A DNA stretch of 64,000 bases from Patescibacteria group bacterium. Lineage in GTDB: Bacteria > Patescibacteriota > Minisyncoccia > Minisyncoccales > JAHCRE01. The notes under the pieces are model-generated. The model saw only the letters and a program-made list of their open reading frames with translations. It was not told the DNA's origin and searched no databases. The position numbers and the translations under genes are program-made. The stretch spans positions 71,257 through 135,256 of the forward strand of contig JAHCRF010000001.1 of NCBI GenBank assembly GCA_020148055.1. Direction: 5' to 3'. Shown in pieces: positions 1,426-64,000 of the stretch. Each line of letters starts with the position of its first letter. Within the stretch, counting starts at the first letter, position 1.

Positions 1426-2694
1426 TTAACTTATTCTTAAATTCGCATCAGCTTCAATATCAGGGGCCCGCCAAAGGCGGGAAGGTGGTCGGGACGCGAG
1501 GCCTTCTCGTGAAACGGGAGGCCCCGTCCTTGGGCGGGTCGGAGTCCAGGCCTTAGTTTCTTTTCTGAGATAACGAAAATAAGCAGCTACTGCCACCATA
1601 ACGGCATTATCAGTACATAAAATTTTTGGTGGAACCAAAAATTTAATCGTTAATCGCTGGTTTTTAATTGCTAATTGAAATTGTTTTCTTAATTCATTAT
1701 TGGCAGCCACCCCTCCACCAAGGATAATCATTCCGGCTTTATATTTTCTTGCTGCCTGGATGGTTTTATGAATTAAAACGTCAACTATTGCCTGTTGGAC
1801 CTCGGTAGACATTTCCTGGATAAATTTTTGCTTTTTGCGTTCTGTTTTCTGTTTTTTGATTTTATATAAGACCGCGGTTTTCAGACCAGAAAAACTGAAA
1901 TCAAAATTTTTTTGGTGAATCATTGGCCTCGGTAATTGAATATTGAATATTGAATATTGAATATTGGATTTTAATTGAGCGGCAAGCCGTTCAATGGCCG
2001 GTCCTCCTGGGTAATCCATTCCTAAAATTCTGGCTACTTTGTCAAAACATTCACCAGCAGCATCATCTCGAGTTTCACCAAGGATTTTGTATTCTCCGTA
2101 ATTTTTCATTAAAATTAACTGGGTATGACCGCCGCTTACCACTAAACAAACTGCCGGAAACGAAAACTTTAAACTTGAACCAACCAAGTTGGCGAAAATG
2201 TGAGCTTCGATATGGTTTACTGGGATTATTGGTAGTTCCCAAGAAAAAGCTAAAGCTTTGGCAAAATTTACCCCTACCCACAAGCAAGGTTCTAACCCTG
2301 GCCCCATAGTCACGGCAATTAGATCAATTTTTGGTTTCCTGTAATTTCTTAAGAATTCTTTTAACTCCTTTAAAAGATATTCTTCTCGTTTGAATATTTC
2401 TTCTAATACTGGATACTTGATACTTAATAGTTGATGCTTATCATTTTTTTTAAGCGATTTTGCTTTTTTTAACGCCCTTTTTAAAACAGGAATCAAATTT
2501 CGTTGGTGCTCTCTTTTAGCTAAGGTTGGATAGACTCCTCCATATTTTCTGTGAATTTTTATCTGAGAAGAGATAATATCAGACAGAATATTAATTTTCA
2601 TCCGTCTAAATCCGCGTTGTAATCTACCTTTATCTACTTCTACAATCGCTATACAGGTATCGTCACATGATGTTTCGACAGCAAGAATAATCAT
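1426..2694 (-). CDS. tsaD: tRNA N6-adenosine threonylcarbamoyltransferase TsaD (Kae1/Gcp family)
   Basis: MIILAVETSCDDT, NHIEAHI, VSGGHTQL, LCTDNAVM motifs. At 422 aa it is longer than usual because of repeat inserts at 1463-1547 and 1935-1969. Confidence 0.9.
   Translation of the reverse strand: MIILAVETSCDDTCIAIVEVDKGRLQRGFRRMKINILSDIISSQIKIHRKYGGVYPTLAKREHQRNLIPVLKRALKKAKSLKKNDKHQLLSIKYPVLEEIFKREEYLLKELKEFLRNYRKPKIDLIAVTMGPGLEPCLWVGVNFAKALAFSWELPIIPVNHIEAHIFANLVGSSLKFSFPAVCLVVSGGHTQLILMKNYGEYKILGETRDDAAGECFDKVARILGMDYPGGPAIERLAAQLKSNIQYSIFNIQLPRPMIHQKNFDFSFSGLKTAVLYKIKKQKTERKKQKFIQEMSTEVQQAIVDVLIHKTIQAARKYKAGMIILGGGVAANNELRKQFQLAIKNQRLTIKFLVPPKILCTDNAVMVAVAAYFRYLRKETKAWTPTRPRTGPPVSREGLASRPPSRLWRAPDIEADANLRIS
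1463..1547 (+). repeat. GC-rich hairpin element family A, copy 1 (in frame near the 3' end of tsaD, antisense to the host)
   Basis: 85 nt, about 87% identical by eye to 28032-28115. It is a GC island in AT-rich DNA and encodes ...TPTRPRTGPPVSREGLASRPPSRLWRAP... of TsaD. Confidence 0.9.
1935..1969. repeat. five-heptamer array (attgaat x4 + attggat) inside tsaD
   Basis: Direct reading. Encodes ...SNIQYSIFNIQ... upstream of the conserved FDFSFSGLKTAV. Confidence 0.85.
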
Positions 2695-4515: not shown

Positions 4516-6711
4516 TTATTCTAAATGGATTCTTTCTCGAAACTTCTCTACTCTTCCCCTTAATAAGGGATATTTTTTTAATTCAGGGTCCTCTTCTAAA
4601 ATTTCTTTAGCCGCCTTTCTAGTTTTCTCAACTAAGAATATATCTTTCAAAGCTGACATTGCTAAATCAGGAATTCCCCATTGTCTTTGACCAAAAAAAT
4701 CACCAGGGCCTCGAATTCCCAAATCTTTTTCAGCTAACTCAAAACCATTTTCAGAAGAAATCAAAGCTTTCAATCGTTGATGAGTTTTCTTAGCTGGAGA
4801 GTCAGTGAATAAAAAGCAAAAAGATTGATATTTTGATCTTCCTACTCTTCCCCGAAATTGATGGAGCTGCGCTAGCCCAAATCTTTCTGCTCCCTCAATC
4901 ATCATTACCGTGGCATTAGGAACATCGATCCCCACTTCAATTACTGAGGTTGAGACTAAAATGTCAATCTTTTTACCCCTTCCGGTTTGTGCAGAAAAAT
5001 GTTTCATTATCTTCTCTTTTTCTTTTGTAGTCATTTTCCCGTGTAACATTCCAACTTTTAAATCAGGGAAAACAATTTTTGATAGTTTTTGATATTCTTC
5101 TTTTACTGCCCTTACCTCAGCCCAGCTTGAAATTTCTTTTTCTATTTTTTCCTTATCACTAGGTTCAATCCTTGGGCAAATAACAAAAACCTGTCTTCCT
5201 TTTTTAACAACAGAGCGTATAAAATTATAAGCAGCCTTACGATTTCCCGGGGCAATCACCTTAGTGACGATTTTTTTCCTTCCCTTCGGCAATTCATTAA
5301 TTAAAGAAAGATCAAGATCACCGTAAATAGTAAGAGCCAAAGTCCTTGGAATTGGGGTAGCGGTCATTGATAATAAATGGGGAATTATTCTTGTTGCTTG
5401 CCCGCCTGCCGGCGAGGCTGGTTGCTGGTTGCTAGTTGCTAACTTTGCCCTTTGTTCCACTCCAAACCGATGCTGCTCATCCAGGATAACCAGAGCCAAT
5501 TTTCCAAAGCGCACTTTTTCTTGAATTAAGGCGTGAGTACCAATTAAAAGATCAATCTCTTCTTTTTTTAATTTTTCTAAAAGTTTTTCTCGAGAAATTT
5601 TGATAACTTTATTTTTTCTGTCGCCGAAAGCGACTCCCCGGAGGGTTGCTCTTTTAGAAAAAATTCTATTTTCTTTCCCGGTTAAAAGACCAATATTTAA
5701 ATTAAATTTTTTTAAAAGTTTTGAAATCTCCTGAAAATGTTGCTTAGCTAGGATTTCAGTTGGAGCCATAAAAGCCACTTGGAAACCTTGTTTTATTACA
5801 TTTAAAGCAGCTAATACAGCCACCACTGTTTTCCCTGAACCAACATCGCCTTCTAAAAGTCTGTTCATCGGTCTTGGTTTTTCGAGGTCTTTTAGAATCT
5901 GCCAGGCTGATTTTTTTTGGGCATTAGTTAATTTGAAAGGTAAGCTTTTAACAAAATTCTTAATTAACTGGGGATGAAAAGGGATTGGAATTGCTCTTTC
6001 TTTTGAGATTTTTAATTTCTCTCTTAAAACAAAAAGAGAAATAAAAAAAAGCTCCTCAAAAGAAAATCTTTTCTGAGCCTTTTTGGCTAAGGTTAAGGAA
6101 TCTGGGAAATGAATCTGCCAGATAGCTCTTTGGATTGGCAAAATTCGAGAATCTCTAATTACTTTTCCTGGTAGGGGTTCGCGAATTTTCTTTTTAAACT
6201 CAACCAAAAGGGGTCTTAGAATAAATCTTAACCATCTTGAAGACAATCCTTCAGTTTCGGGATAAACAGGGACAATTCTTCCGGTATGAATTAGACTTGT
6301 AGTTTGACTGATTTTCTCATGAGCTGGATTTGATAGATAAAGTCCTTTGTCTCCGAGAGTTATTTTTCCAGCTAAACATAAATTATCTCCTGATTTTAAA
6401 ACTTTTATTAAATAAGGTTGGTTAAACCAGATTACCTTTATTGCTCCTGATTTGTCTTTGACTATTGCCTGGGTTAAAATCATTCTTTTTTTCCAGGTTC
6501 TGATGTTTTCAATTTCTAGAATTTTTACCTTAATACAACAGGTTTCATTAAGTTTTACTTGAGATATCGGAATTATATTTGAAAAATCCTCATAGCGATG
6601 AGGAAAATGATAGAGAAGATCCCTGATTGTCTTTATTCCCAATTTCTTCAACCTCTTTTGGTAGCTGAGACCTACTCGAGGCAGACTCTCAATTGGAGTA
6701 GAAAGATTCAT
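4516..6711 (-). CDS. recG: ATP-dependent DNA helicase RecG
   Basis: Start moved to ATG 6711 (MNLSTPIESLPRVG), below the tRNA. Has DVGSGKT Walker A, LDEQHRFG, MTATPIPRTL and QFRGRVGRS. Contains inserts B and E. Confidence 0.9.
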   Translation of the reverse strand: MNLSTPIESLPRVGLSYQKRLKKLGIKTIRDLLYHFPHRYEDFSNIIPISQVKLNETCCIKVKILEIENIRTWKKRMILTQAIVKDKSGAIKVIWFNQPYLIKVLKSGDNLCLAGKITLGDKGLYLSNPAHEKISQTTSLIHTGRIVPVYPETEGLSSRWLRFILRPLLVEFKKKIREPLPGKVIRDSRILPIQRAIWQIHFPDSLTLAKKAQKRFSFEELFFISLFVLREKLKISKERAIPIPFHPQLIKNFVKSLPFKLTNAQKKSAWQILKDLEKPRPMNRLLEGDVGSGKTVVAVLAALNVIKQGFQVAFMAPTEILAKQHFQEISKLLKKFNLNIGLLTGKENRIFSKRATLRGVAFGDRKNKVIKISREKLLEKLKKEEIDLLIGTHALIQEKVRFGKLALVILDEQHRFGVEQRAKLATSNQQPASPAGGQATRIIPHLLSMTATPIPRTLALTIYGDLDLSLINELPKGRKKIVTKVIAPGNRKAAYNFIRSVVKKGRQVFVICPRIEPSDKEKIEKEISSWAEVRAVKEEYQKLSKIVFPDLKVGMLHGKMTTKEKEKIMKHFSAQTGRGKKIDILVSTSVIEVGIDVPNATVMMIEGAERFGLAQLHQFRGRVGRSKYQSFCFLFTDSPAKKTHQRLKALISSENGFELAEKDLGIRGPGDFFGQRQWGIPDLAMSALKDIFLVEKTRKAAKEILEEDPELKKYPLLRGRVEKFRERIHLE
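5383..5439 (-). repeat. element family B, copy 1 (gcaacNN heptamers + GC hairpin), in frame in recG
   Basis: Sense strand gcaactagcaaccagcaaccagcctcgccggcaggcgggcaagcaacaagaataatt is about 90% identical to 50750-50807. Encodes ATSNQQPASPAGGQATR. Confidence 0.9.
5620..5649 (+). repeat. element family E, copy 1 (gtcgccgaaagcgactcc hairpin), in frame in recG
   Basis: The gtcgc/gcgac stem with its flank resembles 48138-48156 (gtcgccgtaaggcgactcc). Encodes ..TLRGVAFGDRK... Confidence 0.7.
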
Positions 6712-9016: not shown

Positions 9017-9544
9017 ATGGCAATAGAAATTATTCCAAAAAAAGTAGTTGGACCTTCCCCTTGGCAAAATACCTTGCTTTATTTTTTCATTTCTTTACTT
9101 TTGGTTTCCATTTTGGGTTACTTTGCCTTAGATTATTTTGTCAAAGAAGCTGATCGGACTCTTCTGGAGTTGAAAGAGGAGTTAATTGAAGCAAGATCTC
9201 CTCAACAAGTTGCCTTGGAAAAAGAAATTTCGGATTATCGAGAAAAAATCGAAGATTTCTCTTCTTTACTTGCTAGCCACCAAAAGAGTTCAAATTTTTT
9301 TGATTTCCTTGAGGAAATTACCCATCCTAAGGTTTTCTTTTCTGAGCTAAATTTGGATACTAAAGGAAATCGAGTTAGACTTTATGGTCAGGCTGATAGT
9401 TTTCAGACCCTGGGCCAACAATTGCTGATTTTTCAAAACTCTGAATTTATTCGGAATTTAAGTTTACCAGAAATTAGAATTAGAGAAGAGGGAAAAATCG
9501 GATTCATTTTTGATTTTTCTCTTAATCAAGAATTGTTTCAATAA
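9017..9544 (+). CDS. pilN: PilN-like pilus assembly protein (single N-terminal TM)
   Basis: 175 aa, one TM then a coiled coil. Called on position after pilM. Confidence 0.6.
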   Translation: MAIEIIPKKVVGPSPWQNTLLYFFISLLLVSILGYFALDYFVKEADRTLLELKEELIEARSPQQVALEKEISDYREKIEDFSSLLASHQKSSNFFDFLEEITHPKVFFSELNLDTKGNRVRLYGQADSFQTLGQQLLIFQNSEFIRNLSLPEIRIREEGKIGFIFDFSLNQELFQ

Positions 9545-9547
9545 ATT

Positions 9548-10105
9548 ATGTCTCGATTAACTTTAATTATTATTTGTTTTTTCCTCATTTTATTAATAGG
9601 CCTTTTCTTAATCTGGCCAAAATATCAAAACTTGGGAGCTCTTAAACTTGAAATTGAAGGAAAGGAAATTGAATTACAATACTTGGAAGAATATTTTCAA
9701 AGGCTCGATCAGCTTTCCCAAGAGCTTAAAAAATATGAGGCTCAACTTTCAAAGATTGATTTTGCCCTTCCCTCTGATTCTTCTTTAACTTTGCTTTCTT
9801 TAATAAATTTCCTTCAAAAAGCGAGCTCCCAAAATGGTTTAGTTTTTAAAGAATTGGGATCGTTTTCAATAATCTTACCGAAACCACCAGCCGAAGCTTC
9901 TGGTCTTCAGGAATCTCAACTTTCTTCTAAAATCAAAGAGATCTATCTTGGCTTTGAAGTTGCTGGTTCTTATTCTGCTTTGAAAAATTTCCTTAATACC
10001 TTGGAAAAAAGTGCCAAACTTATCGAAGTAGAAGAGGTTTCTTTTTCTTTTGAAGAGGAGGAGATTTTTTCTTTTATTTTTAAAATAAAAACTCATTCTT
10101 ATTAA
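9548..10105 (+). CDS. pilO: PilO-like pilus assembly protein
   Basis: 185 aa, N-terminal TM plus coiled coil. Called on position after pilN. Confidence 0.6.
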   Translation: MSRLTLIIICFFLILLIGLFLIWPKYQNLGALKLEIEGKEIELQYLEEYFQRLDQLSQELKKYEAQLSKIDFALPSDSSLTLLSLINFLQKASSQNGLVFKELGSFSIILPKPPAEASGLQESQLSSKIKEIYLGFEVAGSYSALKNFLNTLEKSAKLIEVEEVSFSFEEEEIFSFIFKIKTHSY

Positions 10106-10432: not shown

Positions 10433-12160
10433 ATGACGTTAGTTCGCCAATTGATTCAAAAAAAGATCTTAAATAAAGAAAAAGCCACTTCTCTAGAATT
10501 TGAAATTAAAAGCTCGGGAAGAAAAGAGGAAGAGGTGATTTTAGAGAAAAAAATAGTTTCTGAAAGTTTTTTATTTAAGTTAAAGAGCGAAAATCTTAAA
10601 ATACCTTTGAAAGAAGTTCTTCCTGAAGATGTAATTTTCAAGGTTTTGGAGCGCATTCCTGAGGAATCAGCCAAGTATTACAAGATGATACCAATCCGTC
10701 AAAGAGACGATCTGTTGGAAGTCGGAATGGTCTATCCAGAGGATTTAAAAGCTCAAGAAGCTCTCAAATTCTTAACTCGTCAGGAAAAATTGTCTTATGA
10801 AGTCTTTTTGATTACCCCTACTACTTTTAATAATCTCTTGAAGAAATACCGAACTTTGAAAAAAGAAGTCACTAAGGCTTTAGAGGAGTTAGAAGAAGAA
10901 ATAAAGGTAGAGAAAGTTAAAGCTAGGCCTTTGGCTCCTGCTGAATTCGAAAGATTGGTTGAAGAGGCTCCAATTTCTAAAGTAGTGGCCGTGATGTTGA
11001 GGCACGCAGTAGAAGGAGATGCTTCTGATATTCATATCGAACCAACCAGAGATAAATTAAAAGTTCGATTCCGGTTAGATGGAGTTTTACATTCTTCTCT
11101 CCTCTTACCTATTAGAATCCATCAAGCTGTGGTAGCCAGAGTTAAAATTCTATCTAATCTTAAGATTGATGAAATGAGAGTGCCTCAAGACGGTAGATTT
11201 TCGACTAGAATAGATGGTCAAGACATTGATTTCCGGGTTTCCACTTTTCCGACTACCGAAGGAGAAAAAGTGGCAATCAGAGTTTTAGACCCTTCAAAAG
11301 GAATGTTGAGCTTGGAAGAATTGGGGATGGTTGGTAGAAATCTCGAGGTGATAAAGGAAGCGATAAAAAAACCCTATGGGATGATTTTAGCTACTGGTCC
11401 CACCGGGACAGGGAAAACCACTACCTTGTACGCTATTTTAAAAATTTTAAATCAGGAAGGAGTAAATATTGTTGCTTTAGAAGATCCGGTTGAATATTAT
11501 ATTGGAGGGATTAATCAGTCCCAGATGAGACCGGATATCGGTTATACTTTTGCCACCGGTTTGCGGCATGTTGTCAGACAGGATCCTGATATCATTATGG
11601 TTGGAGAGATTCGAGATGAGGAAACAGCTTCCTTAGCTACCCATGCTGCCTTAACTGGCCATGTTGTTTTATCTACCTTGCATACTACCAATGCCTTAGG
11701 AACAATCCCTCGACTTATTGATTTAGGAATTCAACCTTATTTAATTCCCCCCACTATAAGTATCTCTTTAGCCCAGAGATTGGTTAGGAGATTGTGTCCA
11801 GAATGTAAAAAGAAAGTCAAACCAAAATTAAAAATCAGAGATTTAATTTTGAAAGAAACTGAAGCTCTTTCTCTAACAGCTAAAAAAGATCTTAAGATCT
11901 CGAAAAGCTTCTCAATTTTTGAGCCTAAGGGTTGTAAAAAATGTCGTTTTGAAGGTTATTCTGGTCGAATTGGGCTTTTTGAAGTTTTAGTAATGACCGA
12001 TGAACTTTCTGAGCTAATCTTGAAGGAACCTTCAGAAGTTAAGATTGCTGAGGAGGCCGAAAACCAGGGAATGATTACAATGAAACAAGACGGTATTTTA
12101 AAAGTTTTAGATGGCATCACTTCAATTGAAGAAGTTTTGAGAGTGGCTGAGGAGAAATAA
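10433..12160 (+). CDS. pilB: type IV pilus assembly (extension) ATPase PilB/GspE family
   Basis: N-terminal GSPII-type domain, Walker A GPTGTGKTTT, Asp/His boxes and a tetracysteine CPEC...CKKC. Confidence 0.9.
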   Translation: MTLVRQLIQKKILNKEKATSLEFEIKSSGRKEEEVILEKKIVSESFLFKLKSENLKIPLKEVLPEDVIFKVLERIPEESAKYYKMIPIRQRDDLLEVGMVYPEDLKAQEALKFLTRQEKLSYEVFLITPTTFNNLLKKYRTLKKEVTKALEELEEEIKVEKVKARPLAPAEFERLVEEAPISKVVAVMLRHAVEGDASDIHIEPTRDKLKVRFRLDGVLHSSLLLPIRIHQAVVARVKILSNLKIDEMRVPQDGRFSTRIDGQDIDFRVSTFPTTEGEKVAIRVLDPSKGMLSLEELGMVGRNLEVIKEAIKKPYGMILATGPTGTGKTTTLYAILKILNQEGVNIVALEDPVEYYIGGINQSQMRPDIGYTFATGLRHVVRQDPDIIMVGEIRDEETASLATHAALTGHVVLSTLHTTNALGTIPRLIDLGIQPYLIPPTISISLAQRLVRRLCPECKKKVKPKLKIRDLILKETEALSLTAKKDLKISKSFSIFEPKGCKKCRFEGYSGRIGLFEVLVMTDELSELILKEPSEVKIAEEAENQGMITMKQDGILKVLDGITSIEEVLRVAEEK

Positions 12161-26866: not shown

Positions 26867-26876
26867 AAAGTTTAAA

Positions 26877-26903
26877 GTGGGGGCTTGACCCCCCACCTAT
26901 TTT
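26877..26903 (+). terminator. intrinsic terminator (gtggggg-cttgac-cccccac + ctatttt)
   Basis: 7-bp GC stem plus a T-rich tail, immediately after the stop at 26866. Confidence 0.7.
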
Positions 26904-26918
26904 GCCGTTTAATCTACT

Positions 26919-26987
26919 GGCGGCACACTAAACGAATAGTTTGTCCTCCTAGGGGAGGACTGGGCTATTCGCCCACCGTGTGCCGCC
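26919..26987 (+). other. 69-nt three-helix GC-rich hairpin (candidate small RNA or intergenic palindromic element)
   Basis: ggcggcacac/gtgtgccgcc (10 bp), cgaatag/ctattcg (7 bp), gtcctcc/ggaggac (7 bp), loop tagg. All perfect Watson-Crick. Confidence 0.6.
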
Positions 26988-27056
26988 TAAGTTAAACACA
27001 CTTTTTCGTCGTATTTCTATAAAAAGATGAGTTGAGAAACAAAATAGGTGGGAGGG

Positions 27057-27177: not shown

Positions 27178-30100
27178 ATGAAGTTTAAAGATTTTTCAAA
27201 ATCAAAAATTTCCCTACCCTTACCTTATTTACTCTCGATTCAAAGAGAAAGCTGGCAGAGATTTTGGGAAAGAGATTTAAAAGAACTCTTTTCAGAAATA
27301 TCGCCCATTCAAGATTATACCGGAAAGGAGTTAGAACTCTGGTTTTTAGACTATAAATTGGATGAGCCCAAATATAAAACTACCTTGGAAGCTAAGGAGA
27401 ATAATGATTCTTATGAAGCAGCCTTGCGGGCTAGAGTAAGATTAGTCAATCTCAAAACAAAAGAAATTAAAGAACAAGAAGTCTTTTTAACCGATTTCCC
27501 CTTAATGACCAAGAGAGGAACTTTTATTGTTAACGGGATAGAAAGAGTAGTTATTTCTCAGCTTATTCGTTCCCCCGGCGCCTTTTTTACTTCTCAGATA
27601 ATTAGAGGTGAAACTCATTTTGGAGCAAAAATTATTCCTAATCGGGGAGCTTGGCTTGAATTTGGAACTGAAGCCTCCGGTTTTATTGGAGTTAAGATTG
27701 ACCGAAAGAGAAAAGTAGCAGCTACTACTTTATTGAGAGCTTTCGGAATTGATCAAGATGAAAAAATTCTAGAGATCTTCCAAGATATTGATAACAATCC
27801 AGAAATTAACTATATTTCAGAGACAATAAAAAGAGACCCTACTAAAAATCAAGCCGAAGCCTTAATTGAAGTCTATCAGCATCTAAGACCAGGAGATTTA
27901 ACAACCGCTGAGACAGCTAGAGAGTTGATTGAAAACATGTTTTTTAATTTTGAAAGATATGATTTGTCAAAAGTAGGGAGATGGCGAATGTGGCAGAGAC
28001 TACCGGAATTGAAAAAATCCAAAATCCAAAAGGGGCCCACGAAAGTGGGAGGGCGGTCGGGACGCGAGGCCTTCCCGCGGAACGGGAGGCCCCGTCCTTG
28101 GGTGGGTTGGAGTCCAAAATCCAAAACTAAAAAGCCAAAGCTAGAAGAAGGAATCACCAGGTCAGATAGGGTTTTGCATCCCGAAGATATTGTGGCTGTT
28201 TTGAGAGAGATTATTAGATTAAATAATGACCCCGGGGGAAAACCCGATCAGATTGATCATTTGGGCAATCGGCGAGTAAGAACTTTAAATGAACTTTTAC
28301 AAAACCGATTAAGGGTAGGTTTAATGAGAATGGCCAGGATTATCAAAGACCGAATGGCTACTTTAGATATTTCCATCTTAACCCCGGTTCAATTGATTAA
28401 TTCCCGACCATTTATAGCGATAGTTAGGGAATTCTTTACCTCTTCTCAGCTTGCTCAGTTTATGGACAATGAGAATCCTCTTGCTGAATTAGAGCATAAA
28501 AGAAGACTATCAGCTACCGGACCAGGTGGTTTAACTCGAGAAAGAGCTGGGTTTGAGGTTAGAGATGTTCAACCATCCCATTATGGAAGGATTTGCCCTA
28601 TCCAAACTCCTGAAGGACCAAATGTTGGGTTAATTAATCATTTAGCTGGTTTTGCCCGAGTTAATCCTTATGGTTTTATTGAAACTCCTTATTTCAAGGT
28701 GAAAAATGGAAGGGTTACTTCAGAAATTTGTTATCTTAATGCCTATGAAGAAGAAAAGTATAATATTGCCCATGGAGGAGTACCAATCGATGAGAAAGGC
28801 AAAATTACCTCCAAAAAGGTTGAAGCTAGAGTAAAGGGTGAACCAGGAATAGTTGGTAGAGAAAAAGTTGATTTTTTCGACATCTCTCCTGCCCAATCAA
28901 TTTCTATCGCTACTTCTTGCATTCCTTTTTTACAAAATGATGATGCCAACCGAGCCTTAATGGGATCAAATATGCAAAGACAAGCTGTTCCTCTTCTCAG
29001 ACCAGGGGTTCCCCTAGTTATTACTGGAGCAGAAGAGAAGGTAGCTAGAGATTCTGGCCAGGAGATAATTGCCGAGGAAGAAGGGGTTGTTACCGAAGTC
29101 GATGCTAATCATATTAAAATTAGGGGTAAAAAGGGAGAAAAGAAATATCCTCTGCAAACTTTTATTCAGACCAATCAATTCACTTGTTTTCATCAAAGCC
29201 CCTTAGTTAAAAAAGGGAAGGTTGTTAAAAAAGGAGACATTTTAACTGATGGTGGAGGAATTTCTCAAGAACATTTAGCTTTAGGCCGAAATATTTTGGT
29301 TGCTTTTATGTCCTGGCGTGGAGGAACTTTTGAAGATGCAATTTTGATTTCTGAAAGATTGGTTAGAGATGATGCTTATACTTCAATTCATATTGAGGAT
29401 TTTAGTTGTGATGTTCGAGAAACCAAATTGGGACCGGAGATTACAACCTGTGATATTCCTAACGTTTCAGAAGAAAAATTGAGGAATTTAGATGAAGAAG
29501 GTTTAGTCAGAATTGGGGCTGAAGTTGGCCCAAATGATATCTTGGTTGGGAAGATTTCTCCAAAAGGAGAAGTTGATTTAACTGCTGAGGAAAGATTATT
29601 GAGAGCTATTTTTGGAGAGAAAGCTAGAGAAGTTAAAGATACCTCTTTATTAATGGAGCATGGTAAACAGGGGAGGGTAATTAATGTGAAGATTTTTTCT
29701 AGAGAATCGGGTCATAGACTTGACCCCGGAGTGATAAAAAGAATTGATGTTAAAGTAGCGGAGATTAGAAAAACTCAAGCCGGTGATAAATTAGCTGGTC
29801 GCCATGGGAATAAGGGAGTGATTTCTAAGGTTTTACCAATTGAAGATATGCCATTTTTAGAAGATGGAACTCCAGTCGATATTATTTTAAATCCTCTAAG
29901 CATTGCCTCGCGAATGAATATTGGTCAAGTTCTGGAAGCTCATTTAGGAAAAGCGGCCAAAAAATTGGGCTACATTGCTATTTCTCCGGCCTTAGCTGGA
30001 GTGACTGAGGAAGAGATTAAAGAAGAGCTTAGGAAGGCTGGATTACCAGAAGATGGAAAAGTCGCTCTTTATGATGGCCGAACCGGCCTACCTTTTTCCA

Positions 30101-48803: not shown

Positions 48804-48864
48804 CCAGATTTGTTAGATAGAGGGTTTGTTGAAATTCTTTGAAATTTTGGGTATAATAACTTTT

Positions 48865-49698
48865 ATGAAAGAAAAAGTTATTAAAATCCGTGGAGCCAAA
48901 GTTCACAATTTAAAAAATATTAATCTTGATATCCCAAAAAACAAACTGGTAGTGATTACTGGGATTTCAGGTTCAGGAAAATCATCTTTGGCCTTTGATA
49001 CATTATATGCTGAAGGACAAAGAAGATATGTTGAGAGTTTATCTGCTTATGCAAGGCAATTTTTAGGAGTGATGGATAAACCAGAGGTTGACAAAATTGA
49101 AGGAATTTCACCTGCAATTTCAATTGACCAAAGAAAAGCAGCTCACAATCCACGCTCCACTGTTGGAACCATTACTGAAATTGCAGATTACTTAAGATTA
49201 TTATTCGCTAGGATAGGGAAGCCCCATTGTCCAAAATGTAAAAAAACAGTTAGCCGTCAGACCATCGATCAAATTACTGATCAGGTTTTGAAATTGCCAA
49301 AAAGAACAGAAATTTCGATTTTGGGTCCAGTTGTTAGAGGTCGAAAAGGAGAGCATCGGGGAATTTTAGAAGAGATTCAAAGATCAGGATTTATCCGAGT
49401 GAGAATTGATGGGATTTTACACCGAATTGAAGACTACAACCCACCCACCATGTCCTCCCACTCGCTTCGCGAGCGGGCCCCTACTCTAGGGCTGAAGTTA
49501 GACCGAAAGAAAAAACACAATATTGAGGTTGTTGTTGATAGATTAATAATTGATAAAGACTTGGATAGATCAAGGTTGGTTGATTCTCTGGAAACAGGCC
49601 TAAAGTTGGGAAAAGGAATAGTAATAGTAACTCAAAAAGCTTCCCCAGCCCCACCCGCCACCCATCAAAGGAAAAAAACATCTAAGGCAAAAATCTAA
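48865..49698 (+). CDS. uvrA: excinuclease ABC subunit A, N-terminal fragment; the frame ends at TAA inside or just after repeat element C
   Basis: [47 protein letters not shown]... TATAAT (48852-48857) lies 7 nt upstream of the ATG. Confidence 0.85.
49435..49492 (+). repeat. GC-rich insert D in uvrA (hairpin cccactcgc-ttc-gcgagcggg at 49457-49477)
   Basis: GC island encoding ..[19 protein letters not shown].. between conserved RIDG and [13 protein letters not shown]. Shares gcgggcccct with the reverse complement of element A copy 1. Confidence 0.65.
49629..49693 (+). repeat. element family C, copy 2; coincides with the frame break in uvrA
   Basis: Identical over 65 nt to 31037-31101. Confidence 0.95.
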
Positions 49699-51799
49699 TG
49701 ACTTAATATTCAGCGAGTATTTTGCCTGCGAGGAATGTGGGATTTCTCTTCCAGAATTAGAGCCTCGGCTTTTTTCATTTAATTCTCCTTATGGGGCCTG
49801 TTCAGCCTGCCAGGGGCTTGGAGAAAAATTAGAAATCGATCCAAAATCAGTTTTACCCAATCCAAATTTATCGATTTCTGAAGGAGCAATTTTTCCCTGG
49901 GCTCATGCCTCTCATAAAGTTGGCAGGCAGGGTTATTTTTGGTGGCAGTTCACCCACTTGGCAGAAAAGTATAACTTCTCCTTAGATGTCCCGGTTAAAG
50001 AACTTCCCAAAAAGATCATTGATTTAATTTTATATGGTAATGGCCAATTTGAGGGAGTAGTTCCCAATTTGGAAAGGAGATATCACGAAACTGATTCAGA
50101 ATATACCCGTAAGGAAATTGAGCAGTATATGATAAAAAAGAGATGTGAAAAATGTCAGGGAAAAAGATTAAGGCCTGAAGCCTTGGCAGTGACTGTGATA
50201 AAAAAATCAATAAATGAAATCGTTGAAATTTCAATAGAAAAAGAAAAAAGATTTTTCGAGAATTTACTACTAAATCCTAAATCCTATAACCTAAATCCTA
50301 ATGACTACAAAATTGCCCAACCAATTGTTAAGGAAATCATTAAGCGATTACAATTTCTAATTGATGTTGGTTTAGATTATTTAACCTTAGATCGGAAGAC
50401 AGAAACTTTATCGGCTGGGGAAGAGCAGAGAATAAGATTGGCTACTCAGTTAGGTTCTCAATTAACCGGAGTTTTATACATTTTGGATGAACCTTCAATT
50501 GGTCTTCATGCTAGAGATCAGGGTAGGCTCATCGAAACCTTAAATAAGTTAAGGGATTTGGGCAATACCGTTATTGTTGTTGAACATGATCCTCAGACAA
50601 TCATGGCTGCTGACTGGGTGATCGATATAGGGCCAGGAGCGGGGAAACACGGTGGCAAAATTATATTTAAGGGAACACCAAAAGAATTACTGAGATCAAA
50701 GACACTTACTGGAGATTATTTAGCTGGAAGAAAGAAAGTTGAGATAAAAGCAACCAGCAACAAGCAACCTGCCTCGCCGACAGGCGGGCAAGCAACCAAG
50801 AATAATTATCTAATAATAAAGAAAGCGGCTGAGCACAATCTCAAAAATATTGATGTTAAAATTCCTTTGGGAAAATTTGTCTGCATTACTGGAGTTTCGG
50901 GTTCGGGCAAAAGTTCTCTAATGAATGATATTTTAGCTAAAGCCCTGATGAGGAAATTTTACAAAGCCAAAGAGGAACCGGGAGAATTTAAAGAATTAAT
51001 TGGAACAGAATTTTTGGATAAAGTGGTTTTAGTGGATCAGTCTCCAATTGGCCGAACCCCCAGATCAAATCCGGCAACTTATACCGGAGTTTTTTCTTAT
51101 ATCAGAGATCTTTTTTCAAAAACCAGAGAGGCCAGAATTAGGGGGTATCGGCCAGGACGTTTCAGTTTTAATGTTAAGGGAGGAAGATGTGAAGTATGTC
51201 AAGGTCAGGGTCAAATCAAAATCGAGATGTACTTTTTGCCTGATATTTATATTGAGTGCCAGGAATGTAAGGGGAAAAGGTTCAACAAAGAAACCTTGGC
51301 TATTGAATATAAAGGAAAGAATATTGCTGAGGTTTTAGAAATGACAGTTGAAGAAGCCCTAAAATTTTTCATAAATATTCCCGGTATCTATCATAAATTA
51401 AAAACTTTGTATGATGTTGGTTTAGGCTATATTCAATTGGGCCAGCCAGCCCCTTCTTTGTCTGGAGGGGAGGCCCAGAGAGTGAAATTAGCTACTGAAC
51501 TTTCTAAAAGGGCTACGGGAAAGACTTTATATATTTTAGATGAACCAACCACTGGTTTGCATCCCGATGATATTAAAAAATTAGTTTGGGTTTTGAGAAA
51601 TCTGGTAGATAAAGGAAATACGGTTTTATTAACTGAACATAACATCGATATCATCCGCAATTCAGATTGGATAATAGATTTAGGACCGGAAGGTGGAGAT
51701 GAAGGCGGCGATATTATTGCAATAGGTACTCCATTTGAAATTACAAAAAACAAAAAAAGTTATACCGGACACTATTTAAAACAAGTTTTTAAATCTTGA
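49631..51799 (+). CDS. uvrA: excinuclease ABC subunit A, remainder of the gene in the +1 frame (open from 49631; UvrA homology resumes about 49700)
   Basis: [41 protein letters not shown]... and a second ABC module, [10 protein letters not shown]...[12 protein letters not shown]...[12 protein letters not shown]. The track only lists it from 49958. Confidence 0.85.
50271..50305. repeat. five-heptamer array (taaatcc taaatcc tataacc taaatcc taatgac) inside uvrA
   Basis: Direct reading. Encodes ..[15 protein letters not shown]... Confidence 0.85.
50750..50807 (+). repeat. element family B, copy 2, in frame in uvrA
   Basis: gcaaccagcaacaagcaacctgcctcgccgacaggcgggcaagcaaccaagaataatt. Encodes [17 protein letters not shown]. 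Confidence 0.9.
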
Positions 51800-54060: not shown

Positions 54061-54089
54061 TTGCCAGGGGTAAGACTTTAATTTATAAT
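54061..54089 (+). promoter_or_regulatory. sigma-70-type promoter TTGCCA-17-TATAAT for lemA-htpX
   Basis: Motifs and spacing read directly. Confidence 0.55.
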
Positions 54090-54204
54090 AAAATAGTTAC
54101 CTGCTCGCTCCGCCTTGCCTGCCCGACATGACCAGTCTCTGGCAAATGAACGAAGCAAAGCGGGGCAAGGGGGGAAAGGTCGTAAAATTAAAGGAGTTAA
54201 AATT

Positions 54205-54827: not shown

Positions 54828-55733
54828 ATGACTCTCTATACTCTAGCTGAATCGAATATCCGGAAGACCTGGTTTTATTTAATGTTCTTTTTTTGTTTTA
54901 TTATTTTTCTTGGTTGGATTATTTCTTATTTTCTTCAAAATTGGGGAATTTTCTGGGTTGCTTTAATTCTTGGTATTCTGATGAACTTTGCCAGTTTCTG
55001 GTATTCTGACAAGATTGTTCTGGCAATGGCAAAAGCTAAAAAAATTGAGAAAAGAGATAACCCCGAGCTATATCGAATTGTTGAAAATCTTTGTATCACA
55101 GCTGGCTTGCCGTTACCTAAAATTTACATTATAAATGAGCAGCAACCAAATGCCTTTGCCACTGGCAGGGATCCAAAAAGGGCAGCAATCGCTGTGACTC
55201 AAGGACTAATTGATAAGTTAGATAGAGTGGAATTGGAAGGGGTTCTTGGTCATGAATTAGCCCATATCGGAAATCGAGATATGTTATTGGCAACTGCAAT
55301 TGTGGTTTTAGTTGGGATGGTAGTTTTGATGACTGATTTTTTCTTTCGGATTTCCTTTTGGGGAGGGGGTTCTCGGCGTCGGAGAGAAGGTCGGAGAGAA
55401 GGGGGCTCAATTTTAGGATTAATTGCCTTGATTTTGGCAATTTTTGCTCCTTTATTTGCTACTTTAATAAAACTGGCTATTTCCAGAAAAAGAGAATTTT
55501 TAGCTGATGTTTCAGGAGCCCTTTTAACCAGATATCCTGAAGGATTAGCTAGGGCTTTGGAAAAAATTTCTCGAGACCCGAGACCATTGAGAGCAGCTAA
55601 TGATGCAACTTGCCATTTATATATTGTTAATCCCTTTCGCAGTCAAGAAAGAAAATCCTGGCTTCATAAACTTTTTATGACCCATCCACCAGTTGAGGAA
55701 AGGATTCGGGCTTTGAGAGGAATGAGAATGTAA
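54828..55733 (+). CDS. htpX: M48-family zinc metalloprotease HtpX
   Basis: HELAHIGNRD (HExxH), 4 TMs, and a Gly/Arg-rich loop. Confidence 0.9.
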   Translation: MTLYTLAESNIRKTWFYLMFFFCFIIFLGWIISYFLQNWGIFWVALILGILMNFASFWYSDKIVLAMAKAKKIEKRDNPELYRIVENLCITAGLPLPKIYIINEQQPNAFATGRDPKRAAIAVTQGLIDKLDRVELEGVLGHELAHIGNRDMLLATAIVVLVGMVVLMTDFFFRISFWGGGSRRRREGRREGGSILGLIALILAIFAPLFATLIKLAISRKREFLADVSGALLTRYPEGLARALEKISRDPRPLRAANDATCHLYIVNPFRSQERKSWLHKLFMTHPPVEERIRALRGMRM

Positions 55734-58478: not shown

Positions 58479-58479
58479 A

Positions 58480-58509
58480 TCCCGCACCTTGCTTGCAAGG
58501 TGCGGGATA
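58480..58509. terminator. strong GC hairpin (atcccgcaccttgc / gcaaggtgcgggat) between glgA-1 and the GH57 gene
   Basis: 14-nt perfect inverted arms. There is no clear T-run, so the terminator role is uncertain. Confidence 0.45.
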
Positions 58510-62574: not shown

Positions 62575-64000
62575 ATGTTTCTTTCTCCTATTGAGGAAAT
62601 CAAAAATCGTCTTGATATAGTAAAAGTAATCTCAAGTTATATTAAATTGAAAAAAGCAGGAGCGAATTATAAGGCTCTCTGTCCCTTTCATTCAGAGAAG
62701 AAACCCTCATTTTTTGTTTCTCCAGCTAGACAAATCTGGCATTGCTTCGGATGTTCCGCCGGAGGCGATATTTTTAAATTTGTAATGCAAATCGAAGGAG
62801 TAGAATTTGGAGACGCCTTAAAGATTTTAGCAAGAAGAGCCGGTGTAAAGTTAAAAAGAGAGGATCCAAAATTAAGAACTGAGAGACAAAGAACTTATGA
62901 AATTTGCGAGCTATCTTCCAGATTTTTCCAAAAACAATTGGAAGGAAGCAAAACCGGTTTGGAAGCTAAAAAATATCTTTTAGCTCGAGGAATTACTGAA
63001 GAATCAATTAAAAAATGGCAAATTGGTTATGCTCCTGATAGCTGGCGGGGATTATCTGATTTTTTGGTCTCTCAAGGATACACGCGGGAAGAAGTTGAAA
63101 AAGCCGGTCTAGCAATAAAAAATGAAAAAGGTAATTTTTATGATCGATTTCGGGGAAGAATAATTTTTCCAATTTTTGATTTAAATTCCCAGCCAATCGG
63201 TTTTGGAGGCCGAGTATTCAAAACAAGTCGCGAGCCACGGGTTATAAGGTCCCGGGCGAGCGACACCTTAAAGGAAGAGGGAGGCAGGGAGCAAGACGAC
63301 CGTCGGAAGGGAGAAACCTTGGTGTCTCCCTCCGAGCCTGCAAAATATATTAATACCCCCGGTACTTTGCTTTATGATAAAAGCCGGATTTTATATGGTT
63401 TAGATAAAGCCAAAATGGAAATTAGAAAAAGAGATTTTTCTATTTTAGTAGAGGGCTATATTGATGTCATTATGTCTCATCAGGTAGGTTTCAATAATGT
63501 GGTAGCTACTTCGGGAACTGCCTTAACGCCTTACCAATTAAAAATTTTGAAAAGGTATTCGGAGAATATTTTGACTGCTTTTGATATGGATATTGCTGGA
63601 GATTGGGCGACTAAAAGAGGAATAGATTTAGCTCAGGCCCAGGGATTTAATGTAAAAATAATTACTATGCCAGAAAGTTTAGACCCGGCTGATATTATTT
63701 CTCAAAATCAAAAAAAATGGAAAGAATTAGTGGAGAGTTCAAAATCAATTTTAGATTTTTATTTTGAAACTACTTTCTCTAAGTTTGATAGAAAAACTCC
63801 CCAGGGAAAGAAGGGGATTTCAAAAATTCTTTTGAAGGTGATAAAAAGAATTCCAAATAAAATTGAACAGTCCTATTGGATTCAGCAACTTTCAAAAAAC
63901 CTGGAAGTTAGAGAGGAAGATGTAATCGCTGAGCTTCGAAAGATAAAAATTGAAAAACCAGAAACTGAGGAGGTTGAGGAATTGCCTCCTCAGAAATCTC
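62575..64000 (+). CDS. dnaG: DNA primase (runs off the window end)
   Basis: Absent from the track because there is no stop. MFLSPIEEIKNRLDIVKVISSYIKLKKAGANYKALCPFHSEKKPSFFVSP..WHCFGCSAGGD zinc ribbon. Toprim EGYIDV..AFDMDIAGD. Contains a 117-nt GC insert. Confidence 0.9.
   Translation, partial: MFLSPIEEIKNRLDIVKVISSYIKLKKAGANYKALCPFHSEKKPSFFVSPARQIWHCFGCSAGGDIFKFVMQIEGVEFGDALKILARRAGVKLKREDPKLRTERQRTYEICELSSRFFQKQLEGSKTGLEAKKYLLARGITEESIKKWQIGYAPDSWRGLSDFLVSQGYTREEVEKAGLAIKNEKGNFYDRFRGRIIFPIFDLNSQPIGFGGRVFKTSREPRVIRSRASDTLKEEGGREQDDRRKGETLVSPSEPAKYINTPGTLLYDKSRILYGLDKAKMEIRKRDFSILVEGYIDVIMSHQVGFNNVVATSGTALTPYQLKILKRYSENILTAFDMDIAGDWATKRGIDLAQAQGFNVKIITMPESLDPADIISQNQKKWKELVESSKSILDFYFETTFSKFDRKTPQGKKGISKILLKVIKRIPNKIEQSYWIQQLSKNLEVREEDVIAELRKIKIEKPETEEVEELPPQKS
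63226..63342 (+). repeat. 117-nt GC-rich structured insert in frame in dnaG
   Basis: Lies between conserved GFGGRVF and (A)KYINTPGT. Hairpin gtcgc-GA-gcc-a-cggg...cccg-ggc-GA-gcgac, followed by a purine-rich segment with a gggaga/tctccc stem. Confidence 0.8.

Follow-up and report, generated by a model that had tools for sequence, protein, structure and literature searches.

GC-rich hairpin repeats as the probable source of an in-frame insert in the primase gene of a Patescibacteria group bacterium

REPs are extragenic by definition, carry the tetranucleotide GTAG at the 5' end and are linked to a RAYT gene. Rickettsia palindromic elements (RPEs) recur in frame within housekeeping ORFs that are otherwise unrelated; translation proceeds through them, which adds peptide segments that are compatible with the protein fold (PMC10969869). 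GC-rich hairpin repeats are also present in AT-rich mitochondrial genomes, in which they occur as single, double or triple elements of up to ~84 bp; they lie mostly between genes, are found in variable parts of protein and rRNA genes as well, and are kept in transcripts (PMC2800124).

Here, we analysed a 64-kb stretch of DNA from a Patescibacteria group bacterium (hereafter, the window) in which the gene for DNA primase, dnaG, carries an insert made up of two modules, H1 and M2 (Table 1). We consider it probable, at roughly 78%, that the insert is a mosaic of non-autonomous GC-rich hairpin repeats that are dispersed in Patescibacteria and that recently entered dnaG. Sister families of repeats, i.e. 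F1, F1-short and F2, are present inside other essential genes of the window.

Among the described systems, the RPEs appear to be the closest functional analogue, in the sense that the insert may work like an RPE and not that it is a member of that class. Both consist of short repeats that form hairpins, are non-autonomous and lie in frame inside housekeeping ORFs of a reduced genome, and the insert in dnaG is an in-frame, stop-free insertion with copies of its modules at unrelated loci (one extra copy each). However, RPEs are limited to Rickettsia, have a length of ~100-150 bp and are grouped into families, each of which has a conserved peptide, whereas the modules described here are 45-90 nt long, strongly GC-rich although their genome is AT-rich, arranged as mosaics or nested, and located in coding as well as intergenic DNA. 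As the two groups belong to different phyla, the modules would not be expected to be homologous to the RPE families. REP/BIME (REPIN) elements resemble the modules in being GC-rich imperfect palindromes of ~35-50 nt with bulges and mismatches, which are dispersed and arranged in mosaic clusters; here, such clusters combine H1 with F1-short (locus L005 of the closest relative) and H1 with M2 (dnaG). By contrast to REPs, H1 begins with GTCGCG and not with GTAG; GTAG is found ahead of the F1-short copy in uvrA, and CTAG, AAAG or TCAG ahead of other copies. Moreover, the dnaG copy is intragenic, although the copies in L005 and in the more distant locus L008 are extragenic, and no RAYT, Y1 or HUH gene was detected by Pfam/NCBIfam among the ORFs of the window. 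The GC clusters, double-hairpin elements and repetitive hairpin-forming elements of mitochondria (yeast, Allomyces and sponges) are alike in composition and behaviour, but they are organellar, unrelated in sequence and belong to another domain of life. Finally, MITEs are small, non-autonomous, structured and multicopy, and can form in-frame fusions; the insert differs from them in that it is a composite without TIRs and without a target duplication of fixed length, and no parent IS was identified. In the open-access literature searched in full text, we found no description of such elements in CPR/Patescibacteria.

Table 1. Features of the window discussed in the text, with positions counted from the first nucleotide of the window.
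Feature	Positions	Strand	Remarks
dnaG (DNA primase) CDS, host of the insert	62575..64000, cut by window end	+	translation matches P0001 at 100%
Whole insert	63226..63333	+	~108 nt/36 codons, encodes SREPRVIRSRASDTLKEEGGREQDDRRKGETLVSPS; absent from relatives
Module H1	63227..63272	+	imperfect 38-nt palindrome (stem-loop 63227-63264) plus tail ACACCTTAAA
Module M2	63266..63336	+	5' block, variable centre and 3' block; both blocks identical in L008/L009
M2 5' block AAGGAAGAGGGAGGCAG	63271-63287	+	17 nt, identical in L008/L009
M2 3' block TCGGAAGGGAGAAACCTTGGTGTCTCCCTCCGAG	63303-63336	+	34 nt, identical in L008/L009; contains the apex hairpin
M2 apex hairpin GGGAGA/TCTCCC	63309-63330	+	within the 3' block
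F1 repeat in rpoB, in frame	28031..28116	+	86 nt, 72% GC; 87% identical to 1462-1548
F1, second copy, 3' end of tsaD (gene on - strand)	1462..1548	+	87% identical to the rpoB copy
F1-short in N-terminal ORF of uvrA, in frame	49431..49485	-	49/53 identical (49431-49483) to L005 3113-3165
F2 module in recG, in frame	5383..5441	-	91.5% identical to 50749-50807
F2 module in uvrA, in frame	50749..50807	+	91.5% identical to the recG copy

Position, composition and fold of the dnaG insert

The primase is represented in full length (610 aa) by the database protein P0001, in which Pfam places Zn_ribbon_DnaG at residues 6-96, DNAG_N at residues 117-228 and in a second stretch, and Toprim at residues 290-374. 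The insert (~residues 218-254) lies upstream of Toprim and interrupts DNAG_N (PF08275) at position ~111 of the 128 in the profile. Because DNAG_N itself is split, the insert sits within the catalytic core of the primase and not, as the first-pass annotation of this DNA had placed it, between the zinc-binding and the RNA-polymerase domains. The same annotation had described an abnormally wide spacing of the conserved GFGGR and KYINTP motifs, and this was borne out: the gap is 43 residues in this primase and usually 8-18 residues among the 120 best homologues, in which the next-longest gaps (31 residues in P0028 and P0036, 36 residues in P0040) contain nothing like the insert.

In the alignment of DnaG orthologues, which had been proposed as a check, the insert is absent from the 119 other homologues listed. 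These include the closest relative among them, P0002 (84% amino acid identity; assembly GCA_020148025.1, locus L001), the dnaG of which is ~89% identical at the nucleotide level in the flanks and encodes an 11-residue loop in place of the insert. Similarly, query residues 222-254 lack a counterpart in solved primases, and the PDB alignments have a clean gap at the insert (2AU3 picks up at chain 213/214 and 5GUJ at 116/117). In an AlphaFold2 prediction based on 60 homologues, residues 221-254 have a pLDDT <50 and no secondary structure, while the flanks reach 85-96, and the insert lies between the strand ending in GFGGR and the strand at KYI. Without the two modules, a loop of ~7 residues (VFKTEPA) would be left, which is typical for homologues. 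The loop is naturally variable in length, and P0040 has a 59% GC insert in it with a sequence unrelated to the insert described here.

An intein (at least ~130 aa, with an N-terminal C/S/T and a C-terminal HN followed by C/S/T) was considered and rejected, as the insert has 36 residues, ends in ...VSPS/EPA and lacks HN; the predicted disorder disfavours an intein as well. Translational bypass and DGR readings were dropped for lack of any defining feature.

The first-pass annotation had further described the insert as a GC-rich island, in agreement with a GC content of 61.8% for 63227-63336 compared to 34.7% in the remaining dnaG. The window has an overall GC content of 35.0%, and 80-nt windows along it (sd 0.071) peak at 0.64 over the insert. 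GC3 is 0.64 within the insert and 0.26 outside, and GC at the three codon positions of the insert is flat (0.64/0.56/0.64) with no periodicity; moreover, arginine is encoded by CGN/AGG in the insert and mostly by AGA in the rest of dnaG. The insert reads in frame without a stop codon, and the ORF continues beyond it. Its boundaries are uncertain by ~3 nt because of GAG/G microhomology. In total, we conclude that the insert is a genuine, compositionally foreign, hairpin-forming insertion into a normally short loop.

The loop length varies from 8 to 36 residues among homologues, in agreement with an ordinary, lineage-specific expansion of the loop under protein-level selection that involves no repeat DNA. 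We regard this explanation as very improbable: the codon usage of the insert is unlike that of its host gene, and the near-identical non-coding copies of both halves (see below) already contradict it. Moreover, the 39-aa peptide of the insert has no related peptide among 1.84 billion representative proteins, the only match being a spurious one to the tandem-repeat protein P0121. A search with a concatenated three-frame peptide was also without matches, but this search missed P0001 itself despite a local phmmer E-value of 4e-16 for that protein.

The stem that the first-pass annotation had drawn for the first half of the insert, i.e. gtcgc-GA-gcc-a-cggg/cccg-ggc-GA-gcgac, corresponds to the predicted MFE structure of 63227-63264. 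This hairpin alone has z = -4.5 as RNA, and -3.9 and -3.5 as DNA for the two strands; the whole region of 129 nt has z = -4.1, and the second half by itself shows no significant structure (z = -1.3). Folding is significant on both DNA strands for H1 only, and the RNA of the + strand folds slightly better than that of the - strand. The stems of H1, the stems of the M2 apex hairpin and the 4-bp stems of the M2 outer helix consist of Watson-Crick pairs only, while G-U wobbles are present in the mid-helix and in the short 5' stem of M2.

The high stability of the H1 hairpin and the slightly better fold of the + strand RNA are in favour of an RNA element that acts in cis within the mRNA of dnaG (a mini-intron, a ribozyme, a regulatory structure or a protein-binding motif) with the G-A loop at its core. 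The first-pass annotation had leaned towards this explanation and had regarded the tandem G-A/A-G loop as an RNA motif; we found no support for either and consider an RNA element improbable. First, the suggested Infernal/Rfam search, which was run on the whole window at the gathering threshold and on the insert region at E<=10, returned nothing relevant, and no family matched even at E<=10. Second, the H1 stems are all Watson-Crick and H1 folds on both DNA strands. Third, the insert is in frame and stop-free. A self-splicing intron or a known ribozyme was rejected on the absence of a match to a curated RNA family and on the length of only 108 nt; self-splicing introns are far larger than 108 nt. 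The copies of the modules described next also bear on this explanation.

Copies and junctions of modules H1 and M2

A 21-mer from the 3' arm of the H1 hairpin was scanned across one genome per GTDB species, which gave three matches. Those in L003 and L004 lie in high-GC genomes, do not extend past 21-22 nt and were set aside as chance controls. The match in L005 (JAHCRH010000010.1) extends to an H1 copy that is identical at 45 of 47 positions (L005 3047-3093; E 4e-12). L005 belongs to the assembly of the closest relative but is a different contig from the one with its dnaG, and the H1 copy is intergenic: it lies on the opposite strand to its two neighbours, an nrdD-like gene and ftsZ, in the spacer that separates them, with the F1-short copy 20 nt away. 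The sole internal difference of this H1 copy is an extra A in the G-A loop, and because the loop here reads GAA/GA, the tandem G-A loop of H1 is not conserved.

For M2, the apex hairpin of the second half was used as the query in a metagenome scan, which led to L008 and L009. These two contigs are 99.4% identical, have a GC content of 34.5%, and derive from a distant Patescibacterium because their ychF-rpsF-ssb block is only ~55% identical at the amino acid level to that of the window. In L008, the M2 copy is intergenic (5420-5516) and its central hairpin is longer than in dnaG; the M2 copies outside the window are on the strand opposite to both neighbouring genes. The L008 copy is bracketed by an unusually long direct repeat of 27 nt (5366-5392 and 5520-5546), a duplication of the 5' end of the neighbouring gene (ATATATAAAATCTGATGATAATCCATA).

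Two observations were made alongside. The 25-nt matches in L006 and L007, which are 60% GC contigs of high-GC organisms, have only the apex hairpin in common with M2; in these contigs, the apex hairpin GGGGAGAAACCTTGGTGTCTCCCC lies within a conserved ~110-nt repeat of their own (L006 12487-12600 and L007 1400-1510), close to REP-like GGGCGCGCGATGCGCGCCC palindromes, and the similarity may be due to chance or to a shared hairpin motif. In addition, the RNase P RNA of L008 (2292-2772) and L009 (7946-8426) is 481 nt long compared to 367 positions in the model, and several large insertions of 48-74 nt and ~90 nt are present in it.

Together, H1 and M2 fully account for the 108-111 nt between 63226/7 and 63333/6. 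They join in the common stretch CCTTA(A/T)AAGG, and the junctions have only short microhomology, consisting of CCTTAAAGG where H1 meets M2 and of GAG at the 3' edge. Terminal inverted repeats spanning the composite were not found, as its ends, GTCGCGAGCC... and ...CTCCCTCCGAG, are not inverted copies, and the empty-site comparison of dnaG with the closest relative revealed no clear target-site duplication. Two candidate duplications were rejected. A direct repeat of CGAGCC, 102 nt apart, has both copies inside hairpin stems and is at odds with the boundaries set by the external copies. A flanking repeat of CAAAA as the insertion edge implies an insert of 122 nt, which is not a multiple of 3.

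That the window holds no second copy of the insert, as previously stated, was confirmed by blastn, and we found no additional H1 or M2 copies in the ~160 kb of related loci. The uniqueness that this had implied did not hold: the recommended search of related genomes recovered copies of both halves in other genomes (H1 in L005, M2 in L008/L009). For each module, one further copy locus was found; with two copies per module and identical stems, there is no covariation signal to score. A blastn search of the insert against plasmids and phages gave nothing meaningful, scans of viral contigs with four module patterns gave zero matches, and the module peptides in all frames matched only themselves, P0131 and P0139 among 240 DnaG and UvrA homologues. 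The insert, then, seems not to be unique DNA but a mosaic of modules that are also intergenic in other Patescibacteria.

These copies bear on two alternative explanations. The blocks of M2 are perfectly conserved across distant genomes, which favours an RNA element; however, the other copies of both H1 and M2 are opposite in strand to both neighbouring genes, and the G-A/A-G loop differs in the second H1 copy, both of which argue against a role as an RNA motif, a ribozyme or an intron. An artefact of assembly or binning, i.e. a chimeric join or a foreign read in the MAG contig, would fit with the insert being carried by one member of the cluster on one contig. It is hardly credible, since the insert is in frame, the gene flanks continue perfectly, both modules are present in Patescibacteria assemblies from independent projects, and similar inserts are found in three related genomes.

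Related repeats in other genes

F1, a structured repeat, is present in rpoB and at the 3' end of tsaD, in which it supplies the last ~30 codons (~32 codons and the stop codon). Its orientation relative to the coding sequence is opposite in the two genes, which is a further argument against an RNA element, and F1 has no match in Rfam. The rpoB copy is flanked on both sides by TCCAAAATCCAAAA, a 14-nt duplication in a heptamer-repeat context. F1-short shares the 5' end (GGGGCCC, hairpin and GGGAGG) and the 3' end (GGGTGGGTTG(G/T)AGTC) of F1 and lacks its central domain. It is missing from the uvrA of the closest relative, and is present in the nrdD-ftsZ spacer of that relative (L005 3111-3167). 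F2 encodes the same peptide, ATSN(Q/K)QPASP(A/T)GGQAT, in recG and uvrA; in the relative's uvrA, F2 (L010 ~11953-12040) has a 30-nt insert of 77% GC nested in the hairpin loop. A concatenated rpoB/uvrA/recG/tsaD query returned UvrA homologues only, and the gene-level empty-site comparison covers dnaG and uvrA.

We aligned positions 39788-64000 of the window with the syntenic 24 kb of the relative (L010 and L001), which are 78-89% identical. All nine GC-rich (>=0.58) indels inside genes in this region are multiples of 3 in length, and some are specific to each of the two lineages. Such a rule would be needless if the inserts were excised, and this argues against an intron-like RNA element. Whichever of the six frames is read, the modules contain 0-2 stop codons; they are nearly stop-free because stop codons are AT-rich, and genes stay open after insertions of 3n nucleotides because the modules are nearly stop-free.

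The related genomes have GC-rich hairpin inserts of their own. In the closest relative, inserts of 42 and 33 nt lie in uvrC/uvrA (L010 9538-9579 and 10432-10464). A third relative, L011, has families of its own in uvrC and uvrA (9378-9587 and 11359-11432; inserts of ~75 nt), one of which is common to the two genes, and a module is nested inside the uvrC module.

Several further observations concern the window itself. The uvrA gene (48826-51799) is split into two ORFs (48826-49698 and 49958-51799), with the frame change at ~49640-49690 in a C-rich insert, after which comes an A7 run. The UvrA of the relative (P0131, 1013 aa) is intact; the split may stem from a sequencing error or from slippage, or uvrA may be a pseudogene here. 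GC-rich intergenic hairpin clusters are present at 26876-27012, upstream of rpoB, and at 54086-54198, between groEL and lemA; both are without a match in Rfam, and the latter is partly absent from the relative. A perfect 30-nt palindrome at 58479-58508, ATCCCGCACCTTGC-TT-GCAAGGTGCGGGAT, sits right behind the stop codon of a glycosyltransferase gene. The closest relative lacks it, and it may be a newly acquired, terminator-like hairpin. Finally, the gene for an M48 peptidase has a tandem 12-nt duplication, GTCGGAGAGAAG (55366-55389), that is absent from the relative.

Origin, movement and significance of the insert

To explain the insert as a mosaic of dispersed repeats, we propose that H1 and M2 belong to a population of such repeats in Patescibacteria genomes, and that the mosaic would have entered, or been copied into, the primase loop after the split from the closest sequenced relative. 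The gene remains open because the insertion has a length of 3n and GC-rich DNA is almost stop-free in most frames. Because the in-frame rule is strict, we argue that the mRNA retains the inserts and, hence, that they are translated. The insert is thus most likely transcribed and translated, in which case it would form a highly charged loop of 36 residues, and its peptides ASDTLKEEGGR and GETLVSPSEPAK would mark the translated protein. A tolerated, disordered surface loop is the most economical reading of the predicted structure, and an RNA-level function is unnecessary to explain the insert.

For the movement of the modules, our leading guess, a tentative one, is a trans-acting enzyme that recognises hairpins, i.e. 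a REP/RAYT-type or IS200/IS605-type single-strand transposase encoded elsewhere; in the window, no gene for a transposase, HUH protein or RT was found by Pfam/NCBIfam on the ORFs or in the synteny annotation. Our next guess, a possible but not a favoured one, is that break repair, ectopic gene conversion or snap-back template switching, and not dedicated transposition, put pre-existing hairpin repeats in place. The clustering and nesting of the modules agree with either mechanism. The junctions with short microhomology only fit with such copying, and so do the inconsistent flanking duplications, which are unconvincing at dnaG and differ in length between rpoB (14 nt) and L008 (27 nt), the inserts nested in hairpin loops, which partly mirror their flanks, and a window without a transposase. 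However, near-identical modules in genomes with only ~55% identity at the protein level suggest active spread, and families such as F1 and F1-short, which are multi-copy and have defined ends, resemble discrete elements. The identical M2 blocks in such divergent genomes imply horizontal spread or strong constraint, and the identity of the 17-nt and 34-nt blocks could reflect functional constraint, which counts against mobility.

A broader reading, which we regard as rather doubtful, is that H1, M2, F1 and F2 are an undescribed class of modular GC-rich hairpin elements of Patescibacteria that spread between distant lineages, colonise essential ORFs, move by a route different from those of MITEs and REPs, and drive variation in protein length. 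The colonised ORFs would be rpoB, dnaG, uvrA, uvrC, recG and tsaD, thanks to the low number of stop codons in the elements. The route, without TIRs or a fixed TSD and with insertion beside or inside each other's loops, would possibly involve hairpin priming or an RNA intermediate. The elements would then be a major and fast source of protein-length variation in reduced genomes.

Our verdict is that the insert is one case of a lineage-wide habit, in which GC-rich repeats lie in frame in essential genes. The proteins of Patescibacteria (CPR) differ from their homologues in other bacteria. If much of the extra length of their core proteins for replication, transcription and repair comes from selfish GC-rich hairpin repeats, this would account for compositional islands and for "inserts" that complicate annotation and alignment, and the repeats would be fast presence/absence markers between close strains. 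For the primase, the insert identifies a loop of the catalytic core as permissive. If true, the explanation would also extend the phenomenon of RPEs and mitochondrial GC clusters to another group of bacteria with reduced genomes, and it would raise the testable question of which enzyme moves the elements in genomes with very few recognisable transposases.
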